From Octopus sinensis (taxonomy: Eukaryota), in NCBI RefSeq assembly GCF_006345805.1, contig NC_042999.1:154938001-155002000 (forward strand): a DNA stretch of 64,000 nucleotides, written 5' to 3'. Positions 5,981 to 61,945 of this stretch are shown here, piece by piece. The notes under the pieces were generated by a model. It made no database searches, was not told where the DNA came from, and saw nothing but the letters and a program-made list of their open reading frames with translations. Numbering within the stretch: the first letter of the stretch is position 1; the number at the start of each line of letters is the position of its first letter. Made by a program: the position numbers and the translations under genes.

Positions 5981-16061
<10,081 letters not shown>

Positions 16062-16215
16062 GTGAGTCATTATTTTTTTTTTTTTCTGAGACTCAAATAT
16101 ACAAAGGATTGTTTGAACCAACCAACTGACATTTCTAGACACTTTAAATATCTTCAAAATGTCATTGCATGGATGAGTGTAAAAATCTTCATGTTTCTTT
16201 TACATTAGCTTCCTC

Positions 16216-16626
16216 GGATCTTATCGGTTTGAACGGCAGTTTTTTCTAGCGGTGTCATATGAAATTGTCACCCATAATTATGACCCTAATATCAATCTAT
16301 TGCATTTCAATCTATTTTAGGGTTAGGGGTGGGAGAAAGGGTAACTTTTTTTCTTCACAAATGTAAATAAACCCAATCTGTTTCTTAAACGAGGGACATA
16401 TTCATACGGCACAGAATGTTTTCACCTCAATAGACGGTCATTAATTGGTTGAAATTGCCGAAATGCAAGAAATTAAAGACCAAATATCTTACAAACTATA
16501 GAATTTTCTCAATAAAGCCGAGAGAAAAAAATGTTTTATAAACACATTCTACCAGTATACGAAGTTTAAATTTTTTTAGTTACCTAGAAATTATGTTAAA
16601 AACTGCCGTTCAAACCGAAAAGATCC
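16216..16626. mobile_element. MITE with GG...CC termini and 8-bp TSD (Merlin-like), family 1
   Basis: TIRs ggatcttatcggtttgaacggcagttttt / aaaaactgccgttcaaaccgaaaagatcc, with perfect TSD gcttcctc. Confidence 0.85.
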
Positions 16627-17261
16627 GCTTCCTCTCTAAGAAGTGACAGAGCCCACTGTTTTCGTAGGCCGTCTGAGACCGATGAGATCATCACTGATTA
16701 TAAATTATATTGATTTCTTTGTGATGATGTGAGACGCCTGGCGGAGTTTCTATTTTATTGATAGGGAGTTATCTCCCTTGTCGGACATTGTTAACAGCGC
16801 ATGACAGGGACTGGGGAAGATATAAATGGTAGTCTCCTGGAATGCGGAAGAGGAGTCACTACCGTGAAGTTCCCCGTACAAGGTGAGAACTTGGAGATTG
16901 ATACGTAATGTTCATTGGTAATCCTGTCTTCTATGGATATTTCCTGGATCACAGTCAAGTTGGATATTACTCGTTGGCGTGAATCCGTTCCTACCAGCTA
17001 ACTGTCAGAGAAATAAACATGGTTGGTGGGGATTTATCAGCGCCTACATGCTGTAACAGAAGTACTGGATGTAGTAGTTTAGAGTGGAAGAGTAGGGTTG
17101 TCATGTGGTTATCAGTTATCACATAGGTCGTCAAATGAATACGGAGCTGCTGGTGGTTTGAGTTAAGTCCCTTTTGTGTATAAATGATGCACAAAACTCA
17201 TGGACAATTAACAGAAACTTTATTTATCGCACAAAACATTTTCCATGCTGTTCTTGAATTA

Positions 17262-22809: not shown

Positions 22810-23990
22810 ATTGCCATATAATAAACAAAAAGAAGTTCGTGTATAAAATTGATCTTTTTTCTACTTTAATTATTACGTTTATTTTCTTATAAAATACACA
22901 CATACAGGAGGAGTAAATTTCTATATATAATAACACTTTGAATGTGGCTCCCGAGAAAGTCGGGTCTCCCCAACCTCGAGAATCTCTGTTATTTCTTCCA
23001 GCTTGGTCTGCTCGACTTGCATCACAATTCGAAGGCCCTGGCCATGCCAGCTGCGTGGCTCCATTACGGCAGCTTCCAATACGGATATTTTGTCTTCTAG
23101 ACCGATAGTAACTGCCGCGACGAGCCACTCTGGGACTACGTCAGGAGGAATATTACTTATCGTAACTCTTGACGTTCTTTTGCCCATATATATGGGCAGA
23201 AGTACCACCTCTTCGGTTTTAAAGGGTCGACTGAATGGAGTCGGGCTGCCTCTTCTGACTCCATTCTTACTTCGACGGTTGCATACCGCCTACCTCTGTT
23301 TACGTATTTTACCAGGTGCTATATAGGCTTTAGACACTTTTCAATTTCACTCTCCACAACGTAGTCTATCTTCTTTATTTTCACCTTGTATGTCTTATAA
23401 ATGAGAGTTTTCTTCTCTATATATTGTTGAATATCTTTTGGAGAGGCTACTTTAACTTCATTCCCCTCCTTCGTTAATAATTCCTTGTGTTTTTCTAAGT
23501 TGTTCAGGTTTAGCATTTTCACTTTTGTGCCTGCCGCAGCGGCAAAATCCAATTTTCTCGATTATTTTCTCATTTTTTTTTTCTGCTATTTTTCTTTTGT
23601 ACATAAACTTGCAACATAATTTTTTTTTTTTTTTGACGTCGATGGTCTAGGTGGGGTATTCTCAAATTCTTCTTCTATTAATGTTTTTTCCACATTTCTT
23701 TCCACTTCCTCTTCCCTCAATAACCCTTCTATATTTAGTTTATTCGAGCTTGCCATAATGCAAGCTTCCCCACACGGGAGTAAAACACGCAAAAAAAAAA
23801 AAAAATTCAGAAATAATCCAACAATGGTTTCAACAAGTAACCAAATGGTTTCAACAAACTAACACTATCAAAAGTTCAAAACAATAAAACGCCCACCCCC
23901 TCGTAAACAGCAAAACATCCAACAATTAACTCAAGACACAACTTGCACGAACTGGTTAGACTTTGGCATCGATCGGTACCGTACAAGGTG
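22810..23990 (-). mobile_element. ORF1/gag-like-only retroelement unit U1 (frameshifted)
   Basis: KTLIYKTYKVKIKKIDYVVESEIEKCL...EEVVLLPIYMGKRTSRVTISNIPPDV..WLVAAV aligns by eye with the 27552 ORF. Confidence 0.7.
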
Positions 23991-25420
23991 ATTTTTTTAT
24001 TACTTACAGGGGGCTATACAAAGAATGGGACAATACAAAACGTGACAAACATAAACTCGGGGAACTTAAAAATTATGAAAAGAAGATGAATTAAGAAGTG
24101 AAAATTGAAAGAAACGAATGAAAATATGAAAGAATATAAATGAGACGCAATGCCCACTCGAACTCCGAAGTCGAGTGGTTACATTTCGACAATTTTTCTC
24201 TTTTTCATAAATGAATATCACAAAAATTACAATCTAATTTTTCTTTTTAGTCTCTCATATTCCATTATGGGTAGGTGGACTCTTATGCAGCCGACACCAT
24301 TTCACCAGTTTTACATTTTTCGCAAATCCCTCCATGAATTTGTCATATCTCTCCTGAGGTATCAAAATACCTCCGTCATTTACATCAAAACTGTCTCCCG
24401 ACAGCCTCACTCTTACCATTTCCTTCACTTTCGCTATTTTTCTCTCCGCGTCCGCACTTTTTTTTTATATATTACAAAGGCTCCCTCAAATTTATACAGT
24501 TCGTTTTCTGTTTCTTCCTCTTGCATATTCTTAGTTTCAAGTTTCTCCGGAACTTTTCGGTTTGAACGGCAGCTTTTTCTAGCGGCGTCATATGAAACTG
24601 TCACCCATAATTATGACTCTAGTATCGATCTATTGCATTTCAATCTGTTTTAGGGTTAGGGTTAGGGGTGGGAGGAAGGATATCTTTTTTTTCTTCAGAA
24701 ATGTAAATAAACCCAATCTGTTTCTTAAACGAGGGACATATTCATACGGCGCAGAATGTTTTCACCTCAATAGACGTCATTGATTGGTTGAAATTGCAGA
24801 AATTGAAGAAAAAAACAACAAATATCTTACAAACTATAGAATTTTCTCAATAAAACCAAGAGAAAAAGATGTTTTATAAACACATTCTACCAGTATACGA
24901 AGTTTAAATTTTTTTAGTTACCTGGAATTAATTTTTAAAAACTGTCGTTCAAACCGAAAAGATCCGTTTTTCCTTACCTTTCTTGTTTTCTACTGAGTGT
25001 TCCCTTTTCTTAGACCTCTTTCTTCTTTTGGGGCTAATAACTCCCTCAATCTCTTCCTTTGATTCTTTCACTTCACTTTTCTTCTTCTCTTTATCTTTCT
25101 GGGTACGGTCCTTCTCTATTTTGTCTTCTTCTCTGTTTGTAATTTCTCCTGCATCTGCTCTTTCTTTTGCTCTTTCATTTGTTCCTTTTCCACCGTCTTT
25201 TCGCTGTGTGTGAATTCGTATTAGGGGCACTCGGTCCTTATGGTGTCCTCTCACTCGCATAAGTAGCAATTTGGTTTCCTTCCCTCCACCACTACCACAT
25301 TCAGCGTCATCTCGTCCTCAACCTCAATCTGATAAGGGATTCCTTCGATATCCTCAAATGTAGCGATAAGCCACATTTCAACTCCAAACGCCCACCAGTT
25401 CAACATATCCGTTTCACCAA
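23991..25420 (-). mobile_element. ORF1-only retroelement unit U2 (3' part: zinc knuckle, K/E-rich linker, C-terminal domain, 3' tail)
   Basis: VVVEGRKPNCYLC..GH..TEC (frameshifted CCHC), hairpin at 24154-24178 and a tail at 23991-24050 similar to SINE tail B. Interrupted by the MITE at 24549-24965. Confidence 0.68.
24549..24965. mobile_element. Merlin-like MITE family 1, second copy
   Basis: Near-identical to 16216-16626. TSD gtttctcc / gtttttcc. Confidence 0.85.
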
Positions 25421-25935
25421 CTATACAATGGTAGAAAGAAAGAGGAATAATGTGGAATCTCCATCTAAAAGCCCAAAGAAGAAAAGAAAGGCACAGGAGA
25501 ACAAGAACGAGAAGAGAAGGAATGAGGAGCCAAGTGCGGAACGAACACAAAGGCCGTTGCATTCAACTAGTAAGGAGGAGGGAGGACGGAAGAAGAGGAG
25601 ACATGAAAGTGAGAAGGAAGGACAAACAGAGACGGGAATGCCAGCAACAGAAGAGGAAGAGAGTGGTGAAGAACAGCAGAGAGAGCCACCGAAGGAGAAA
25701 TATGAAAGAGCTGTGATATTCTTTCTTTTACTTCTTTCAGTCATGCGACTGTAGCCATGCTGGAGCACCGCCTTTAGTCGAACAAATCGACCCCAGGACT
25801 TATTCTTTGTAAGCCTAGTACTTATTCTATCGGTCTCTTTTGCCGAACCGCTAAGTTACGGAGGCATAAACTCGCCAGCATCGGTTGTCAAGCGATGTTG
25901 GGGGAGGGGGGACAAACACAGACACACAAACATAT

Positions 25936-25966
<31 letters not shown>

Positions 25967-26624
25967 CGATGGGCTTCTTTCAGTTTCCGTCTACCAAATC
26001 CACTCACAAGGCTTTGGTGGGCCCGAGTAGAAGACACTTGCCCAAGGTACCACGCAGTGGGACTGAACACGGAACCATGTGGTTCGTAAGCAAGTTACTT
26101 ACCGTAACGCCACTCATACGCCTATGAGTGGCATATGTTACAAAAAAAAAGTGTAAAGATAGAAAAGAAAATTTCAAAAATGAAACATGTCATAAGGGTT
26201 AAAGTGGCTGACAGTGAGTACAATCGAGATGAGAAAGCGGTACTGTTGGAGGAAGAAAAAACAAGAAGGTTGCAGGAAATATTTGGCGACAGGATAGTGA
26301 TAACAAGAATTCGATTTCGTTACGATGAATTGCCACCAGTGATAATATTTGACGATTTGGTGAAACATATGGTGTGACTTTGTGAGGATCTTTAAACAAA
26401 AGGAAAACTAACAAGATATAAGACTGATAAGTACACGCTTTATTTAAAAAAAACAGTAAAATGAAACTACTTGCTTACAGTGGGGCAAGCAAGTCATTTC
26501 ATCTTCATTTTCATTTATATTCATAATTCATTCGTTATATGTTTTTATGAACCCCAATGTATTGTTTTGTCTGTCTTTTGTGTTGTTCCTTCTCTATGAG
26601 GCCTTGTGCCTAATTGAAGAAATA
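25421..26624 (+). mobile_element. ORF1-only retroelement unit U3 (3' part) interrupted by SINE
   Basis: K/E-rich linker (25428-25720), C-terminal domain EKKISKMKHVIRVKVADSEY...YDELPP, hairpin at 26469-26494, tail ending aagaaata at 26624. Confidence 0.65.
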
Positions 26625-27447
26625 AGGACGTTGGTGTTGTCAGTGTTTTATTTAATTAGTGAGTTGGAAGTGTATATGCTCCTTGTGAGTACCGTTTTGT
26701 TTAACTGATATTTGTTGAATTGTTGGAGTGTTGTTACCTGTTGAACTTGTTGTTACGGCTTTTTAATTTTTTCCCCCCATTTATGGGTGAAGTGGTGAAT
26801 AATATGGAAAGTACACTAGTGCAAGCGGGTAGTTATGCTGCGGTGACTGGCAAAAGCCAGTCAGCGGAGGGACTGCAAGTTACAGAAATTAAATTACAGG
26901 AGAAAAACTTCAAAAATACTATGATTTATTAAGAAAGGAGGGAGATAGCCTAAGGTTGACGCTCCTCAAACAAGTAACAGAAAGAACGGAGAAGGTAACT
27001 ATCGTGTATAGAACATTGAAAATTGCAACAAAAAAGGTGGAAATAGCAGCGGTGGAGGCGGTCGAGGAGTGCCTCAGAGAAATTAAGAACGTTGAGACGT
27101 TCTACACCAGAGGAAGGAAATACGGCACAGTGGTGGTACGCTTCGTGAATAAAGAAGCGAGGAAATACTCCACTGTGCCTTTGAGATCTGCAGAGTGGGC
27201 GCTGCTACCGACTTACTGTGGCAAACGTGTGACCAGAGTAAGAATAAGTAGAGTGCCCCCAGAAATTGATGAGGCGTGGCTGGTGGAAGCCATCCTCTTC
27301 AATAGAGAGGAAGACACGGAGATGTTCATTTTCATGTGTCATTCATTATATCATATTTCATTTTTATATTTTTAATTGTTATATATCCCCACATGTGCTG
27401 TAGTGTTCCCCTCTGTGTAATGCCTTTAAGGCAATTTAAAAGAAATA
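26625..27447 (+). mobile_element. ORF1-only retroelement unit U4 (internally deleted)
   Basis: TIVYRTLKI...GRKYGTVVVRF...WALLPTYCGKRVTRVRISRVPPEIDEAWLVEAI, joined directly to a 3' tail ending aagaaata. Confidence 0.68.
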
Positions 27448-27551
27448 AAGAAGCTTGCTTCCCGCGCATGCGTCGGTCTATTCGTTGTGTTGATTTTTGA
27501 CGAGACGGACGGAATTTTTTGAGCTGCTTGTCAGCGGTTTGTCGGTGAGAG

Positions 27552-28607
27552 TTGTACCGGTGGAAAGGAATGTATTCGGACCTTAGCGAGTATGGACTGT
27601 CCTCAGCGGAGGAGGAGCTCGTTAAGGCGGTAAATAGAATGGACGAGCATTTGGAAAGAGTAAAGAGTTTTGCTGAGGCTGCAGAGGTGAAGAAAAGGGA
27701 GGTGGACCTTGCCGGACTAACACAGAAGGTGGGCACTGACGTAAAGTTATTACCCCCAAAAAGGGTCATGGAAAGTATGGAAAAGAAGGCTATTACCTAC
27801 AAGATGTACTCAGTGGAGAGTAGGTCGGTGGAGCGGATGGAGATAGAAAAAGTAGAAAAAGCATTGAAGGGACTTTCGAAGGAAGTGACATACATAGCGA
27901 AAGGAAATGGATATGGGACGGTAGTTGTCCAGTTTAGGACAGCGGAGGAGGCAAAGTGGCTGGCGAGTACAACGGTGAGAACGGAGGAAGTAGTTCTTCT
28001 ACCCACGTACCTTGGAAGAAAGACTTCTAAGGTGAAGGTAGAAGGAATCCCACCCAATATAGAAGTGGCTTATGTTGCGGCAGCCGTCCTCGTTGGTAGT
28101 GAAGAGGAGGTGGCTGTCCTCCAAACCACAGAGACGGAGGAAGGAGGATATAGAGGAAACACATAGGAAATCATCATACAAGTGGAGGCGAAGCAACTGG
28201 AAAATTTGGCGGAGACAGTGACGTTGGGAGAAATAGTATTGAGAGTATGGGTAGAGGGCAGAGTTCCGCGATGCTTTAAATGTGGCCAAAAAGGCCACAT
28301 TAGAGCTCACTGCCTTCTACAGAAGAAAACGACAGAAGAAGCGGTGCTGGAGACGGAGGAGAAAAAGAAAGAAGTACAGATAGATGGAAGGAATAAGGAG
28401 GATGAATGGACAGTGACAGAGAATAAAAGGAAAAAGAGAAAGAAGAGGAAGAACAGTCAGTGTGATGTGGGACCCCAGACCAACTCCATCCCACCCAAGA
28501 CCACTCAGATCCACCATCCCCATACACACACCAAACCCACCCACTCCCTCTCCCCACAGGAAAAAAGATTAGACACCACAAAATTTACAAGACCCCTCCC
28601 CCGCTGA
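27552..28607 (+). pseudogene. L1/Tx1-type ORF1 (gag-like, RRM-like region + CCHC zinc knuckle), unit U5, one in-frame stop
   Basis: ORFs 27552-28166 and 28182-28607 are in the same frame, separated by a single TAG at 28164-28166. Contains CFKCGQKGHIRAHC and a basic NLS-like tract. No endonuclease or RT follows. Confidence 0.8.
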
Positions 28608-28849
28608 TAAAGGTTACGTGTACATGTAACTCAGTGATGAGGAAAGCGGCAAAAGAAAGACTAGATCAAAGACTAAAGAGGACTCAGGACTCAGAGGTGG
28701 CGGTTGGTGTTACTCAGTGTGGGGTGAGTAACACACTTTTCATATTCTCATTTCTCAGTTATCATTCATGTATCAGTACAACCTGAATATAATTTTTTCC
28801 TCTATACTTTTATTTATATTTTTAGTTCCGATTTTTTTTTTGGGGGGGG

Positions 28850-29460
28850 TAGTCGATTAGATAGAACTCAGTACGCAACTGGTACTTAATTTATCGATCT
28901 CGAAAGGATGAAAGGCAAAGTCGGAATTTGAACTCAGAACGTAAAGGCAGATGAAACATCGCTAAGTATTTCGCCCGGCGTGCTAACGTTTCTCCCAGCT
29001 CGCTGCCTTAAGAAAGAAATATAAATATTCTTTTCTACTCTAGGCACAAGGCCCGAAATTTTGGGGGAAGAGGCAAGTCGATTAGATCGACTCAGTACGC
29101 AACTGGTACTTAATTTATCGACCCCGAAAGAATGAAAGGCAAAGTCGACCTCGGCGGAATTTGAACTCAGAACGTAGCGGCAGACGAAATACTGCTAAGC
29201 ATTTCGCTCGGCGTGCTAACGTTTCTTATTTCTTTATTGCCCACAAGGGGTTAAACATAGAGGGGACAAACAAGGAGAGACAAAGGGACTAAGTCGATTA
29301 CATCGACCCCAGTGCGTAACTGGTACTTATTTAATCGACCCCGAAAAGATGAAAGGCAAAGTCGACCTCGTCGGAATTTGAACTCAGAACGTAAAGACGG
29401 ATGATACACTGCTAAGCATTTCGGCTAGCGTGCTAACGTTTCTGCCAGCTCGCTGCCTTT
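28850..29460 (-). mobile_element. Tandem array of three Nin/Deu-domain SINEs (tails A and B)
   Basis: Repeated cgaaaggatgaaaggcaaagtcgacctcggcggaatttgaactcagaacg units. Confidence 0.8.
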
Positions 29461-29545
29461 AGAGAGAAGGCAAGATTGATAGATGAAAAACTTAGAGAAA
29501 ACTGAAAATTTGAATTTATGTTTTATTCTATTGTGTTGTAATATC

Positions 29546-29763
29546 GGTACCACTTAAGAAGAGTGGTCCCGGTGCGCGCACTCGCGCAAGCTAGTTGTGA
29601 CTAGTCGATCCTTACTTTGCGTTTTTGTGTTTTATTTACTATGTTTAAAAAAATTATTTACTTTGCTAGGTAGTCGTTGTAGGATCGACTAGTCACGACT
29701 AGCTAGCGCGGATGCGCAAGTACGCGAATGTGCGCACCGGGACCACTCTTCTTAAGTGGTACC
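29546..29763. mobile_element. Merlin-like MITE family 2
   Basis: TIR ggtaccacttaagaagagtggtcccggtgcgc and its inverse, TSD gtaatatc / ttaatatc. An inverted partial copy interrupted by a SINE lies at about 31503-32104. Confidence 0.82.
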
Positions 29764-31079: not shown

Positions 31080-32710
31080 TAATCTCTCGCAATTAAAAAA
31101 TGAATTGTCACACGATGGCAGGTCTACTAAGGTAAACGACCTCATCAACAACGAGAGACTGTTTACTTAAATGAATAGCGGGATTATGTTTCACCAACTT
31201 AAATACTACCATCTACTTGACATTTCTCAGGCTCTTGTCGGTCAACATTAATGGTCTTTTTTTTTTTTTGTATTCTTAAAGTTCTCGAATCTGTACAAAA
31301 CGGTACCACATAAAAATGGCTTGCTGGTATCCACGAACGTCTCCGAAAAATTCAGTCAGGTATTGTTTTATTGTTTATAAAATAAACCGTGGTAAGAAAC
31401 TGGCTTCCCAGCAACATGGTACAGGGTTCAGCCTCACTGCGTGACACCTTGGGTGTATTCTACTTATATACTCGGGCCGACCAAAGCCTTGTGAGTGGAT
31501 TTGGACGACCTAGCAAAGTAAATAAAACACAAAATAAATCATTTTTTTACACAAAAGGCGCAGGAGTGGCTGTGTGGTAAGTAGCTTGTTTACCAACAAC
31601 ATGGTTCCGGGTTCAGTCCCACTGTGTAGCACCTTAGGCAAGTGTCTCCTAATATAGCCTCGGGCTGACCAAAGCCTTGTGAGTGGATTTGGTAGACGGA
31701 AACTGAAAGAAGCCCGTCGTATATATGTATATATATGTATGTGCGTGTATGTTTGTGTGTCTGTGTTTGTCCCCCTAGCATTGCTTGACAACGGATGCTG
31801 GTGTGTTTATGTCCCCGTCACTTAGCGGTTCGGTAAAAGAGACCGATAGAATAAGTACTGGGCTTACAAAGAATAAGTCCCGGGGTCGATTTGCTCGATT
31901 AAAGGCGGTGCTCCAGCATGGCCGCAGTCAAAATGACTGAAACAAGTAAAAGAGTAAAAGTAAATAAAACACAAAGTAAATAATTTTTTAAACAAAGTAA
32001 ATAACACAAAAACACAAAATAAGGATCGACTAGTCATGACTAGCTGGCGCGGATGCGCGAGTACGCGAGAGCGCGCACCGGGACCACTGTTCTCAATTAC
32101 TACCGGAAAACCCTTTCTTCACAACAGATTCCGATATAATTGGAAAATATATCATCTGAAGCGCGTTGGTAGAAAATTGCATTTAAAAATACCCACTTTT
32201 TCTGTAAGTTATGAGGAAACAAAGCCGTGTGGGCGGCGGATGGAGGGAAGGAGGTAGATATATGTAGGTAGGCCAAACGTTCAACAGCTTTTCGTCTGTT
32301 TCCACGTTCTGAGTTCAAATCCTGCCGAAGTCGTCTTTACCTTTCATTCTTTCGGGGTCGATAAAAATACGTGAGTCGAGTACTGGGGACTCGATGAAAT
32401 AGACTAGCCCCTTCCCCAAGAATTTCAAGCCTTGTGCCTATAGTAGATAGGACCATTATTAGAGGCGACGGGCTGACAAAATCGTTAGAAGGCCGGATAA
32501 AATGTTTGTGATATTTCGTCCGTGTTTACGATCCGGGTTCAAATTCTGCCGAGGTCGATGAAATAGGTACCAGTTGAACACTGCATGCAATGTAATCGAC
32601 TAGCCCCCACCCCCTTTGTATTTATAAGCACAAGACCTGAGAATTTATGGGAGGGGTCTAGTCGATTACATCAACCCAATGTTCAACAGGTACATAGTTT
32701 ATCGACCAGT

Positions 32711-54778: not shown

Positions 54779-57700
54779 ATAGTGGGGGAGCATCACAGCC
54801 ATGTATTGAGAGGAATGCTTTGGGGTTTGAATAATTCGCCTCTGGAAACATGGGTTTTTCGTTCAACATACTTAAACAACCCTTATTCAGGGACCTTTTG
54901 AGCGGGATGGGTTACTCGACGTGAAGAAAATTCTAACTGGGCCCCACCTACAAGGTCATGTGCTGTTTATCTTGATATGAGATCACCATGTCATGCACAT
55001 ATGGTTGTGATGCATGTGCCTAGTGTACCCTTATCAGACGGGTAGTCATGATGGGTATACTGGGCTTCGTATATTTTACCCCAGTGTCGCTTTGATGGCA
55101 TGCACTGCTCTCTCACTCAATAATAATAATAATAATAATAATGGTTTCAAATTTTGGCACAAGGCCAGCAATTTTAGTGGTGGGGTGGGGGTCAGTCAAT
55201 TTTATTCATTCCAGTACTTCATTGGTACTTTATTTTATTAACCCACAATGGTTGAAAGGCAAAATTTTAGTAGTAGTAGTAGTAGTAGAAGTAGTAGCAG
55301 CAGCAGCAGTAGTGGTGGTGGTAGCAGCAGTAACAACTACAACAACTATTTTTAATTTAAGCACAAGACCAGGAATTTCAGGAGAAAGGGGCAGTTGATA
55401 TCAAGGTGAGATTTTGAAGTGTATTTCTCTGAATTTCGATGGAAATAGTTCATACTTCTCTCTCAATGCCACTGACCCCATTCTTCCATTATTCACCTGT
55501 TGTTTGTTTTTTGTTTTTTTGTTTTTTTATTGAGAACAAAAGAAATAGCACAAAATTAAACTAACATTTCATATTATGTTTCCCACAACCTACCAATATA
55601 TCAACATCTACTGTCTCCCTACCACCACCACCACCACCACCACCACCCGCCATCACACACAGCTGTTACATAGTGTTGTTGGTTTGTTTCTATTTCTTTT
55701 GTCCATAAATTCAGTCTTTCTAAGACAAACAACCATTAAACCTTGAATAATTATATATTTACTACTGTTTAGCTCCAGGGAAAAAAATCTTTTCCAGCTA
55801 GCTACTGGCACACAGTTTCTGTCCTGGGAGTGATAAACTCCCTTGCTCATTCCATACGGGCATGAGCTGCGTGTCGGAAGCCAGCTGGAAAAGATGTTTT
55901 CCTGGGGCTAAACAGTAGTGACATCATCCTGTGTAGGACTGTCACATTCTGTTGACAAATTAACTGTTCAGTACTGTAATTGCATATCTGTCACTCAGAG
56001 ATTTAAAAAAATTGTTTTTCTCTTTAATCATATATTTCTTATGGTCCCTCTTTCTTGTTAACTTTCTCACTCCCTCTCTCTTTCTCTCTGGTTGGGCAAC
56101 CATGTACCTCCTCTACAGCAAAACATCTTTTTTTTATTTCTTTATTACCCACAAGGGGCTAAACATAGAGGGGACAAACAAGGACAGACAAACGGATTAA
56201 GTTGATTACATTGACCCCAGTGCATAACTGGTACTTAATTTATCGACCCCGAAAGGATGAAAGGCAAAGTCAACCTCGGAAGAATTTGAACTCAGAACGT
56301 AACGGCAGACGAAATACCTATATCTTTACTACCCACAAGGGGCTAAACATAGAGGGGAAAAACAAGGACAGACAAAGGGGTTAAGTCGATTACATCGACC
56401 CCAGTGCGTAACTGGTACTCAATTTATCGACCCCAAAAGGATGAAAGGCAAAGTCGACCTCGGAGGAATTTGAACTCAGAACATAACGGCAGACGAAATA
56501 CCGATAAGCATTTCGCCCGGTGTGCTAACGATTCTGCCAGCTCGCCGCCTTCGTTTCTGTCTCTGTTGCACTGTAATCATTCATCATCTGACATAAGATC
56601 ACCACCTCCAATGCCCCCCTCCTCCTCTCAAAGGATCTTTGTCTTACAAAGTTATTTGGCGGCCCTGTCAGTGCAGGCACCATTTAAAAAGCATCCAATC
56701 CACATTGTAAATGGTTGGCATTTGGAAAGGCATCCAGCTGTAAAAACCTTGCCAAAACTAACCTCGCCTGTGCTGGTGCCATGTAAAAAGCACTCAGCCA
56801 ACTGTGCAGGGTGGTTGGTGTTAGAAAGGGTACCCAGCTATAAAAGCCATGCCAAGAGAGACACAGAAGTATGGTGCAGGTTTCTTATTTCTTTATTACC
56901 CACAAGAGGTTAAACAAGGACGGACAAAGGGATTAAGTCTATTACATCGACCCAAGTGCGTAACTGGTACTTAATTTATTGACCTTTCAAATACAGGTAC
57001 AACAGAAACAGGAAGAAAGAGTGAGAGAAAGTTGTGGTGAAAGAGTACAGCAGGATTTGTCACCATCCCCTGCCAGAGCCGCATGGAGCTTAAGGTGTTT
57101 TCGCTCAATAAACACTCACAACCCCCAGTCTGGGAATCGAAACCACAATCCTATGACTGCGAGTCCGCTGCCCTAACCACTGGGTCATTGCGCCTCCACA
57201 TAGCTAAAATATGTATATAGAAAAACTGTCTATGTACAGCTAATGTATGCTTATAGTTAATGTATACATATAGCTAATGTATGCATATAGTTAATGTATG
57301 CATATAGCTTAATGTATGCATATAACTAATGTATGTGTATAGCTAATATATAAGTATAGAGAAACTATGGGAAGCCAGTAAGGGCAAAAATCACTACATC
57401 AATATTCTAGTTTTGTGAATCTTGACTCCTCAATAACTTCATTAGATTTAATTATACTTACCATTTCCACAGACTTGTCTTTAGGGTAGTAGAGAAACTG
57501 GTAGCGCCGTGTCAGCGAAGCAACAGCATCGTACCAGTCGACAACGAAGCAGTAACGCTTACAATCTTCCTCCTGCACAACAAAATGAGAGTGAGATAAT
57601 TTTTAAAAAAAAGAAAGATGGAACATGTCTGTCTGTCTTGTGAGCCGCTACAGCAATGATGTTTGTCTCACTCCAACATACATAAATGTTTTAACACAAA

Positions 57701-60014: not shown

Positions 60015-61945
60015 CAATATTAAACCGTTCACAGCTGACTTAGAAGGGGGCTTCTATGTGTGAGAAGCTTCGAAATGCTAGAAATAGCAGCCAGGTCTCT
60101 CCCAAATTACGGCGAGCTGCGTTTTATTTAAAGAAGACGTGTTGGTGGCAGCCAGATAGAAAAGATCCAAGTTCTGGATCTGGATAATCTGTGCTGGAAT
60201 GGTCACAGTTGGAATAACTTTTGATGATACGTTTGCTCAATCTCGGGGTGCTAGGAGCTTCGAAATGCTAGAAATAGCAGCCAGATCATTTCGATGCTGT
60301 AGTTTTGGACCTGGGTGCATTTGAACTCGGGGTAAACAACAACGGCGATAGTTATTCGGGCGGGCTGGCAGAAATGTTAGCATGCCGGGCGAAATGCTTT
60401 GTGGTATTTCGTCCATCGCTGCGTTCTGAGTTCCAATTCCGCCGAGGTTGACTTTGCTTTTCATCTTTTCGAGGTCGATAAATTAAGTACCAGTTACGCC
60501 CTGGAGTCGATATAATCGATTTAATCCGTTTGTCTGTCCTTGTTTGTCCTCTCTGTGTTTAGCCCCTTGTGGGTAGTAAAGAAATCGGTATTTTGTCTGC
60601 CGCTACGTTCTGAGTTCAAATTCCTCCGAGGTCGACTTTGCCTTTCATCCTTTCGGAGTCGATAAATTAAGCACCAGTTACGCACTGGGGTCGATATAAT
60701 CGACTTAATCCGTTTGACTGTCCTTGTTTGTCCCCTCTGTGTTTAGACCCATGTGGGCAGTAAAGAAATAAGTTATTCACAATAAGGAAGAGAAAAATAT
60801 ATCCCAAGCGGTGCGAGAGATATTAGTTAAACAAACGTCAGGTAGATCCTATGTGGTGAGACAAAAATCTTCGATTTACTCAAATTATCTATGCAATTCA
60901 TGAACAAAAGCTCCCTCTATATGTGTTTAAAATCTCAAAAACAAATATCGAGATGACTTTATTAAAAACGAAGCAAGACGATGTGAGTGAATCTTTTTAC
61001 CTTGTTTCAGTCCTTAGACTGCGGCCTAGCTGGGGCACTGCCTTGACGGGTTTAGTACTAATTTTTTTAAAAGTCTAGAACTTATTCTAATGTCTCTTTT
61101 GCCAAACCACCGATGTTACGAGGCTGTAAACAAACCAACAGTGATTGTCAAGTAGTGTACGCGGGAGAGGTACACAAGCACAAGGGACACACACACACAT
61201 ACACACACACACACACACACACCACACAAACACACACACACACACACACACAAATTTATATATACACAATGGGCTTCCATAGTTTCATTCTACCAAATTC
61301 ACTTACAAGACATTGGTCGACCCGGAGCTACAGAACATGCTTGTCCAAGGTGTCTTGCAGTGGGATTGAACCGAAACCCACCTAGCCAAAGAGCGAACTT
61401 CTTAATCACACAGTCATGTCTACGCCTTGTCTTTGAAGAAAGCCTCTTTCAGCCCTTTTACATCTCTCCTAAGCGGAGCATAATATTCAACGAAATCAGG
61501 GACTTAAAATACAACAATATGTCTTTACTCGTTTTTTTTTTACTTGTGTCGGTCATGTGACTGTGGCCATGCTGGAGCACCGCCTTTAGTCGAGCAAATC
61601 GACCTCAGGACTTATTCTTTGTAAGCCTAGTACTTATTCTATCGATCTCTTTTGCCGAACCGTTAAGTTACGGCGACGTAAACTCACCAGCATCGGTTGT
61701 CAAGCGATGTTGGGGGGACAGACACAGACACACAAACATATACGCACGCACACACACACACACACACAAATATATATATAGGCGCAGGAGTGGCTGTGTG
61801 GTAAGTAGCTTGCTAACCAACCACATGGTTCCGGGTTCAGTCCCACTGCGTGGCATCTTGGGCAAGTGTTTTCTGCTATAGCCCCGGGCCGACCAATGCC
61901 TTGTGAGTGGATTTGGTAGACGGAAACTGAAAGAAGCCTGTCGTG

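Follow-up and report, generated by a model that had tools for sequence, protein, structure and literature searches.

A hairpin-bearing 3′ tail common to a SINE, ORF1-only half-LINEs, and Tx1-like LINEs of Octopus sinensis

In a 64,000-nucleotide stretch of the genome of Octopus sinensis (NCBI RefSeq assembly GCF_006345805.1, contig NC_042999.1, positions 154,938,001 to 155,002,000 of the forward strand; hereafter the window), three neighboring protein-coding units, U2 (23991-25420, minus strand), U3 (25421-26624, plus strand), and U4 (26640-27447, plus strand), end in bases that resemble the 3′ tail of a noncoding short interspersed element (SINE), and the question that this locus raises is why elements of such different content should end alike. 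The original prediction for this locus held that a single autonomous long interspersed element (LINE) mobilizes both the SINE and the units, the latter encoding only the first LINE open reading frame (ORF1), through this common terminal signal. We find that the tail is common to at least three autonomous LINE lineages, four ORF1-only families, and one SINE, and that the target sites of these elements expose their dependence. U2, U3, and U4 are probably decayed copies of such half-LINEs, which share their tail with the SINE and with Tx1-like LINEs, and the tail itself likely serves as the signal by which reverse transcriptases pick up their RNA. In what follows, SINE-Y denotes the tailed SINE and SINE-X another SINE, while the ORF1-only units discussed are sorted into families A, B, and D and the LINEs into lineages T, TC, and M.

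The tail module and its hairpin

The end sequences quoted in the original prediction are all present in the window, at 11604-11667 for the SINE tail, 26561-26624 for U3, and 27384-27447 for U4 (all on the plus strand), and at 23991-24054 for U2 (minus strand). Pairwise local alignment against the SINE tail gives a z score of 9.7 for U2, with none of 2000 dinucleotide shuffles scoring as high, together with z scores of 2.7 for U3 (38 of 2000 shuffles as high) and 2.5 for U4 (55 of 2000). Leave-out tail profiles were also run with nhmmer across the whole window. The profile built from three LINE tails at other loci recovers 10 window SINE tails (expect values, E, of 5e-9 to 2e-4) and the U4 tail (5e-7), assigns U3 only 0.13, and leaves U2 undetected; the SINE-only profile returns U2 at 4.7e-6, U4 at 0.072, and U3 at 0.49; and the profile of ORF1-only tails recovers 9 window SINE tails (5e-9 to 6e-5). 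The proposed resemblance thus exceeds chance when U2 is compared with the SINE and when U4 is compared with either the LINEs or the SINE, and is marginal for U3 taken alone. U3 and a SINE tail variant at about 29040-29060 have a 13-base hairpin string, GGCCTTGTGCCTA, in common. Furthermore, an exact run of 26 bases, TTTGTCTGTCCTTGTTTGTCCCCTCT, is common to SINE-Y copies and to LINE-T, an autonomous LINE described below, whose end reads ..TTTGTCTGTCCTTGTTTGTCCCCTCTTTGTAAATGCCTAAATGGCAAATTATATGAAATA and matches many SINE-Y tails identically over the first 26 of these bases. The LINE-only profile and this identical run show the SINE and a LINE to have homologous 3′ ends, and SINE-Y, the ORF1-only families A, B, and D, and lineages T, TC, and M of the LINEs all have tails that are homologous to one another. 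A covariance model of the tail (R1) finds 92 tails in the 310 kb made up of the window and the loci sampled elsewhere.

Such a resemblance could also arise if the tails of the units were separate, 5′-truncated SINE insertions with their own target-site duplications, or if the units were a tandem host gene cluster rather than retrotransposons. The U2 tail does match the SINE better than it matches the LINE tails, the units stand head to tail, and one relative is labeled merely as an uncharacterized protein in the database. Against this, the tail is the integral end of the unit at unrelated loci, being found on all 10 family A copies that are complete or nearly so (each ending in ..GAAATA), 17 of 19 family B copies, and 17 of 19 family D copies, the last with hairpin and A-rich end kept. 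In addition, family D shows variable 5′ truncation together with target duplication, family A copies lie within a SINE with the duplicated target on either side, and there are more than 12,000 ORF candidates genome-wide (here and below, the 2.72-Gb genome in 13,516 contigs). Because the tail belongs to each family at other loci, the case for separate SINE fragments falls away, and we regard this alternative as refuted, with next to no probability left to it.

About 45-60 bases long, the tail is built from three elements: a T-rich box, TTTGTC..TTTGTCCCCTCT; a hairpin of 4 bp whose loop is 5-6 bases; and a terminal A-rich stretch, (A)AAGAAATA. When 17 tails are aligned with MAFFT, the four proposed hairpin pairs form in 86.8% of cells, compared to 61.1% when shuffled (0 of 500 shuffles as high), with changes on both sides in three of the four pairs. 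The corresponding values for 87 distinct tails, in an alignment that was collected with the covariance model and is therefore fitted to it and biased towards it, are 90.8% and 64.2% (again 0 of 500), with both-side changes in all four pairs and slid controls reaching 22-45%. Six fully paired stem types are observed, and these sort by lineage: GCCC/GGGT in SINE-Y and family D, which also have the end ..TAATAAA(G/A)AAAT in common, TGCC/GGCA in LINE-T and family A, AGGC/GCCT in family B, CGCC/GGCG and GGCC/GGCC in sublineages of LINE-T, and AGCC/GGCT in LINE-M. The hairpin is therefore retained through compensatory changes, and the support for it is covariation, not energy, with the hairpin present in the single-sequence folds of 7 of 10 tails. 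A conserved stem-loop in the tail, which the original prediction had put forward for checking, is thus there.

ORF1-only units and autonomous LINEs

That the units are related to a LINE but have ORF1 only is upheld by both the protein that they encode and the one that they lack. The intact form of family A is a 1508-bp unit with a single ORF of 408 amino acids, which aligns with LINE ORF1 at 37% identity over 243 amino acids (blastp, E 6e-51). In the window, this family is represented by U5 (27463-28825, plus strand), the neighbor of U4, whose ORF has more than 12,757 first-look candidates genome-wide; the family A unit is also partly covered by contigs from runs of unrecorded kind. A CCHC knuckle scores 25 bits in LINE ORF1 and 20.5 bits in family A, slightly below the cutoff of 20.8, and the window ORFs have no match above threshold in Pfam. 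The AlphaFold (AF2) model of the family A protein, built from a shallow alignment of 10 rows, has a mean predicted local distance difference test (pLDDT) score of 56.7 and a confident core at about residues 70-250, in which two beta-alpha-beta-beta-alpha-beta-like units (residues 80-233, pLDDT 70-87) would correspond to a predicted RNA recognition motif (RRM). With regard to ORF2, no homologue is found in the window, none beside the tail at 38 and a further 16 family B and D loci (54 tails in all), and none in two 20-kb arrays at the putative second target described below, which hold ORF1-like units only.

The ratio of nonsynonymous to synonymous substitution rates (dN/dS) in family A is 0.17-0.31 between subfamilies and 0.13-0.27 over the folded core, compared to 0.98 between two near-identical copies. 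This is the pattern expected of an ORF that is needed for propagation and whose copies decay after insertion, with family A under purifying selection. Complete family A copies all start at the same bases, and it is in these starts that the family departs from LINE-T, the two reading ACGCGCATGCGTCG.. and cctcactgactg.., respectively, while the 3′ tail module is common to both. Because the 5′ ends differ in this way, an origin of family A by simple internal deletion of LINE-T is not shown.

Some further observations concern the ends of these units. The 5′ ends of ORF1-only families start with a GCGCATGCG-like palindrome (ACGCGCATGCGTCG, CTGCGCATGTGCGAG, CCGCACATGCGCAG; seen at L013, L014, L015, L021, L128, and at 27463 in the window), which the full LINE-T does not have. 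The palindrome may be an internal promoter motif and may resemble an NRF1 site. At L080 (221-760), the ORF2 end of a LINE-M and part of its 3′ untranslated region (UTR) run straight into a family D copy, as either a single chimera or a nested event. The idea of family D as the 3′ portion of a three-ORF LINE was rejected, as 0 of 40 other LINE-M hits run into family D. A proposed relationship between the C-terminal ORF parts of U2 and U3 was likewise dropped, there being no blastp alignment between them.

Autonomous LINEs with an APE endonuclease and a reverse transcriptase that end in this tail, which had been anticipated, do exist elsewhere in the genome. The most complete arrangement is found at L014, where a SINE-X head, a family A unit, the motif AAGTAGCTTTGCTAA, a full LINE-T, and the rest of the SINE-X follow one another on one strand, the LINE-T having an ORF1 of 382 and an ORF2 of 1036 amino acids. 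Matches to Exo_endo_phos (5.3e-12), RVT_1 (1.1e-27), and zf-RVT (1.4e-9) are found in the LINE ORF2, and its closest solved chain is human L1 ORF2p (E 2e-63; R2 scores 2.6e-20). A second lineage, LINE-TC (L049-L054), is 67-69% identical, and a third, LINE-M (L152, L155-L165), about 57% identical, with an end reading ..TGTCCTGTCTGTGTGCAGCCCTGTGTGGCTAATAAAGAAACA. As their ORF2 combines APE endonuclease and reverse transcriptase with a zinc-binding motif at the C-terminus, these LINEs would be placed, from domain content, in the L1/Tx1 group. Since they are both L1-group and target-specific, we call them Tx1-like, a label that refers to target specificity and domain make-up only; the names of their database relatives are those of Octopus and Argonauta and include no clade names.

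Landing sites and the assignment of partners

Each of the LINEs found inserts sequence-specifically and with target duplication. The target of LINE-T is AAG(T/A)AGCTTGCT in the SINE-X head: the LINE-T tail is followed by AAGTAGCTTGCT in 30 of 30 sampled copies, and then by the rest of SINE-X in 28 of these and by another unit in two, while sublineages of LINE-T at 74-93% protein identity use the same site in 18 of 20 cases. The window holds 11 unoccupied SINE-X sites of this kind. All six LINE-TC copies examined lie within (TC)n, and the three whose 5′ flank was read have (CT)n there; for LINE-M, all 11 rows show insertion in (TATC)n.

The ORF1-only families can be compared with these LINEs by the same means. 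In family A, the tail is followed by AAG(T/A)AGCTTGCT in 10 of 10 copies, with the SINE-X head and the motif on the 5′ side in seven of the 10, and the right junction of U4 is also the LINE-T target motif, in the form of a 15-mer, AAGAAGCTTGCTTCC (27448-27462, plus strand), that stands in the SINE-X head and is duplicated by insertions of the LINE-T type. Family B tails are instead followed by a different 15-mer, AGGACGTTGGTGTTG, at 8 of 19 loci as well as in the window, where it lies between U3 and U4 (26625-26639, plus strand). The same 15-mer recurs after a conserved context at three array starts, and no ORF2-bearing user of this junction was seen. At these starts (L056, L057, and L016), the conserved stretch that precedes it at the left end reads ..aaaaatcatctctggctaatcgttgag. 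Family D, to which U2 belongs, differs from both, in that its flanks are all different, 5′ truncation occurs at many points, and a clear 15-16-bp duplication is present in one copy.

SINE-Y also has varied target duplications. Counting its tails genome-wide by an exact pattern, CCTTGTGGGNANTAAAGAAATA, gives 106,129 copies, of which 37,389 (35%) are followed by GGTATTT, a site in SINE-Y's own head. Part of this count reflects dimer or multimer units moving as one, as in the plus-strand dimer at 11249-11667, where a full unit and a unit beginning GGTATTT, with tail-B ends at 11420-11482 and 11605-11667, are bounded as a whole by a target duplication of about 19 bp, ggtttgttag(g/a)agctggc. Dimers under one target duplication recur in the window (11249-11667, 56135-56551, and 60360-60770), and runs of about ten tails spaced by about 185 bp are found elsewhere (G000:C1:8970108-8971805). 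Among the same 106,129 exact tails, the LINE-T motif follows one, (CT)n in the LINE-TC register follows none, and (TCTA)n follows 37, of which 34 are in the LINE-M register, with the repeat present on both sides in two copies that were read. The SINE thus shows no insertion-site preference in common with the LINEs found. The sole exact-tail copy at the SINE-X head site (L131, 1500-1760, minus strand) is full length and has a 16-bp duplication, AAGAAGCTTGCTTTCC. The pattern TGAAATAGGTATTTNGTCTGCC, used to look for a LINE inserted at SINE-Y's own GGTATTT site, gave 133 hits; the 20 that were read comprise 18 SINE-Y variants, one native SINE head, and one SINE-X end, with no LINE among them.

These landing sites bear directly on the most specific part of the original prediction, namely that one autonomous LINE mobilizes the SINE and all ORF1-only units via their common tail. 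The tail module is common to all partners, and the one SINE-Y placed precisely in the LINE-T target with a duplication, together with the 37 in the LINE-M target, indicates that SINE RNA is apparently usable by these lineages. However, LINE-T occupies one SINE-X site in 48 of 50 loci, at which only a single exact SINE tail of the 106,129 is found, with none at the (TC)n of LINE-TC; family D flanks are all different and the family B junction is another again; and the hairpin sequences sort by lineage. Because LINE-T, LINE-TC, LINE-M, family B, family D, and SINE-Y differ in where they land, a single LINE for all of them is unsupported, and we consider it quite improbable.

We favor instead a division of labor among related lineages, in which each ORF1-only family would be copied in trans by the ORF2 protein of a LINE lineage with the same target. 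Family A, and the insertion that placed U4, would then depend on LINE-T at the SINE-X head, and family B on an as yet unseen lineage with AGGACGTTGGTGTTG as its junction. SINE-Y and family D (hence U2), both dispersed and both with the GCCC/GGGT hairpin, would be copied mainly by an unseen relative with relaxed target choice. In this scheme, the tail would likely act as the recognition signal for the LINE reverse transcriptases, and the rare SINE-Y copies that occupy precisely the target of LINE-T or of LINE-M suggest that it also works, inefficiently, with those lineages.

A number of results weigh against this division of labor and against the role that it gives to the tail. Several searches, including 16 further family D loci and the LINE-T sublineages, found no LINE with a GCCC/GGGT hairpin and dispersed flanks, so that the main partner of the SINE is one that we infer. 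Our reading of AGGACGTTGGTGTTG as a second target, or target duplication, is drawn from recurrent junctions, and the 37 SINE-Y ends in (TATC)n may be a matter of chance. With respect to the tail, the match of U3 to SINE or LINE tails is marginal by itself (E 0.13-0.49), and the hairpin is thermodynamically weak: RNAalifold predicts no consensus structure for the tails, and single-sequence folds are no more stable than those of shuffles (z -1.8 to +0.9). The lineages are related, and part of the covariation signal therefore consists of inherited changes that inflate the cell counts. Finally, several tails contain AATAAA or ATTAAA, such that their conservation could in part reflect 3′-end processing rather than binding by a reverse transcriptase.

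Taken further, this last point would mean that descent, or a role as a polyadenylation or termination signal at the transcript 3′ end, accounts for the conservation of the tail, with partners being chosen in some other way. SINE-Y, LINE-TC, LINE-M, and family B tails contain AATAAA or ATTAAA, and a hairpin of merely 4 bp, unstable by energy, is compatible with such a signal. The LINE-T and family A tails, however, have no AATAAA, yet retain the box, the hairpin, and the GAAATA end, and the compensatory changes preserve the hairpin as such. The same module is moreover found in a SINE, transcription of which by RNA polymerase III is an assumption on our part, and genomic copies stop exactly at ..GAAATA, without poly(A), from which we take reverse transcription to start at that point. 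Taking both sides into account, we find a pure 3′-end signal unlikely, and retain the tail as a probable recognition signal.

A more far-reaching version of this reading can be offered only tentatively, and we think it rather less likely to be correct than not to be: within a radiation of target-specific Tx1-like LINEs, the hairpin tail might be a passport valid across lineages, with ORF2 proteins from two or more lineages able to copy the 100,000-copy SINE and several protein-coding half-LINEs, whose own ORF1 is retained under selection, and with the dispersal of the SINE reflecting either relaxed targeting in trans or an unseen lineage without specificity. If true, this would amount to a layered network of parasites and not to simple LINE-SINE pairs.

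The array in the window and its known counterparts

The order of the units at 22,880-29,462 was worked out by tblastn and self-BLAST. The array begins with U1 (22880-23990, minus strand), a decayed ORF1-bearing unit in which amino acids 24-215 of LINE ORF1 are represented at 23540-22963, and which ends in a vestigial ..aagaaaata, where the hairpin tail is not recognizable and model R1 has no match. U2 is a 5′-truncated copy of the dispersed ORF1-only family D, with amino acids 187-243 of ORF1 at 25397-25224, and is interrupted by an insert that resembles a miniature inverted-repeat transposable element (MITE; 24548-24966). U3 is a 5′-truncated copy of the ORF1-only family B with a SINE-X insertion within it (25716-26125), and bears the AGGC/GCCT hairpin. 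U4 is a short ORF1-bearing unit with amino acids ~37-187 of ORF1 at 26905-27345, including stops, and a family-A-like tail with a TGCC/GGCA hairpin. U5, the family A ORF1-only copy, starts with CGCGCATGCGTCGG; its ORF (27570-28728) is 69% identical to the intact 408-amino-acid form and has a stop at 28164-28166, and the 3′ UTR is lost before the tail. The end of U5 is replaced by a cluster of three SINE-Y copies (28837-29462, minus strand), one of which (29227-29462) bears tail B at 29227-29290, while the other two have a different tail that contains GGCCTTGTGCCTA.

This order can be accounted for if U5 inserted into the SINE-X head and U4 subsequently inserted into the duplicated motif to the left of U5, the array most likely having grown by repeated insertion at duplicated target motifs. 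U3, the 15-mer AGGACGTTGGTGTTG, and a U4-like start are also found together at L057 and L059, and for this reason U3 and U4 may have been delivered together on one read-through RNA, 5′-truncated inside U3. U2 and U1 stand head to head with U3, which may be due either to inversion at insertion or to separate events.

Two other elements of the region are described here in their own right. The MITE-like element within U2 is about 420 bp long, with 30-nucleotide terminal inverted repeats that are 90% complementary and, near 24650, a brief TTAGGG-like stretch; another window copy (16207-16630) is 90% identical to it. A near-palindromic element of about 220 bp lies at 29546-29763, with a relative at 31972-32105, and has 41-nucleotide arms that are 95% complementary as well as a nested second pair of arms.

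Non-autonomous LINEs that encode only ORF1 are established from several clades, as HAL1 from L1, HeT-A from Jockey, and Ag-Sponge from CR1 (PMC5753468, PMC5786205). The octopus units resemble all three in having a homologue of ORF1 only, with ORF2 absent and a presumed dependence on an autonomous LINE. HeT-A elements, too, are arrayed head to tail at one particular kind of site, alongside partners that bear a reverse transcriptase. The octopus elements differ from HAL1 and HeT-A in that their parent would be a target-specific, Tx1-like group of cephalopod LINEs, in that there are several families with different targets, and in that the 3′ end is a hairpin tail and not poly(A). They are for this reason an analogue of HAL1 and not HAL1 proper, the mammalian L1 derivative with a poly(A) end, as their relatives carry cephalopod names and their ends read ..GAAATA.

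The closest counterpart with respect to targets is the assignment of SINEU to Tx1-Mar in crocodilians, made by shared target preference (Kojima 2015; PMC4494074). In the passages of that paper considered here, as in the octopus, target-specific Tx1 LINEs lie inside another transposon, partners are assigned by target, and different lineages have different partners. Kojima's reasoning, applied to the octopus, divides the partners by target. The main octopus SINE, in contrast, does not have the targets of the LINEs found, the sharing of targets being seen instead for the ORF1-only families, and its link to the LINEs is the common 3′ tail, an argument that sections 15 and 16 of PMC4494074 do not use. 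Passages of the same paper describe Tx1 families as target-specific, with Kibi stated to be specific for (TC)n and both Kibi and Koshi for microsatellites. LINE-TC in (TC)n is thus like Kibi, and LINE-M, in a tetranucleotide repeat, is like Kibi and Koshi in kind, (TATC)n itself being unnamed in those passages of PMC4494074.

With respect to the tail, the obvious comparison is with stringent SINE-LINE pairs, in which the SINE 3′ end is homologous to the LINE 3′ end and a small conserved stem-loop lies near the terminus, as in the octopus. Such pairs with a common tail were reportedly set out by Ohshima and Okada in 2005 (as cited in PMC4758252), and stem-loop work is said to have been carried out on UnaSINE1 and UnaL2 of the eel. 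The octopus case departs from these pairs in that the exact partner of the SINE was not found, and in that one type of tail extends across at least three LINE lineages and four ORF1-only families. The heads of SINE-X and SINE-Y are not classed as tRNA-derived, as ARAGORN finds no genes and Rfam no matches in the window, the B-box-like strings having been picked out by reading only.

Octopus genomes are dominated by SINEs and LINEs according to two accounts (PMC8967140, PMC13282606), and recent octopus repeat surveys list L1-Tx1 families, with nothing on ORF1-only elements or on nested or site-specific insertion in the passages available from them. Across the main texts of openly accessible full-text articles, we found no description of ORF1-only elements or HAL1 in cephalopods or of a link between octopus SINEs and Tx1 LINEs, nor any paper that names the supplier of the enzyme for the main octopus SINEs.

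The way of life of these elements is therefore already known from mammals, flies, and crocodiles, and the guild of LINEs, half-LINEs, and a SINE in the octopus is real and includes multiple lineages. For annotation, this means that the units should be masked as retrotransposons and not recorded as CCHC-type genes. The tail with its covarying hairpin offers a concrete and testable recognition signal, and the target sites provide a natural read-out of which ORF2 protein copied which RNA. Finally, purifying selection on ORF1-only elements in a Tx1-like group extends the way of life of HAL1 and HeT-A to the molluscs.

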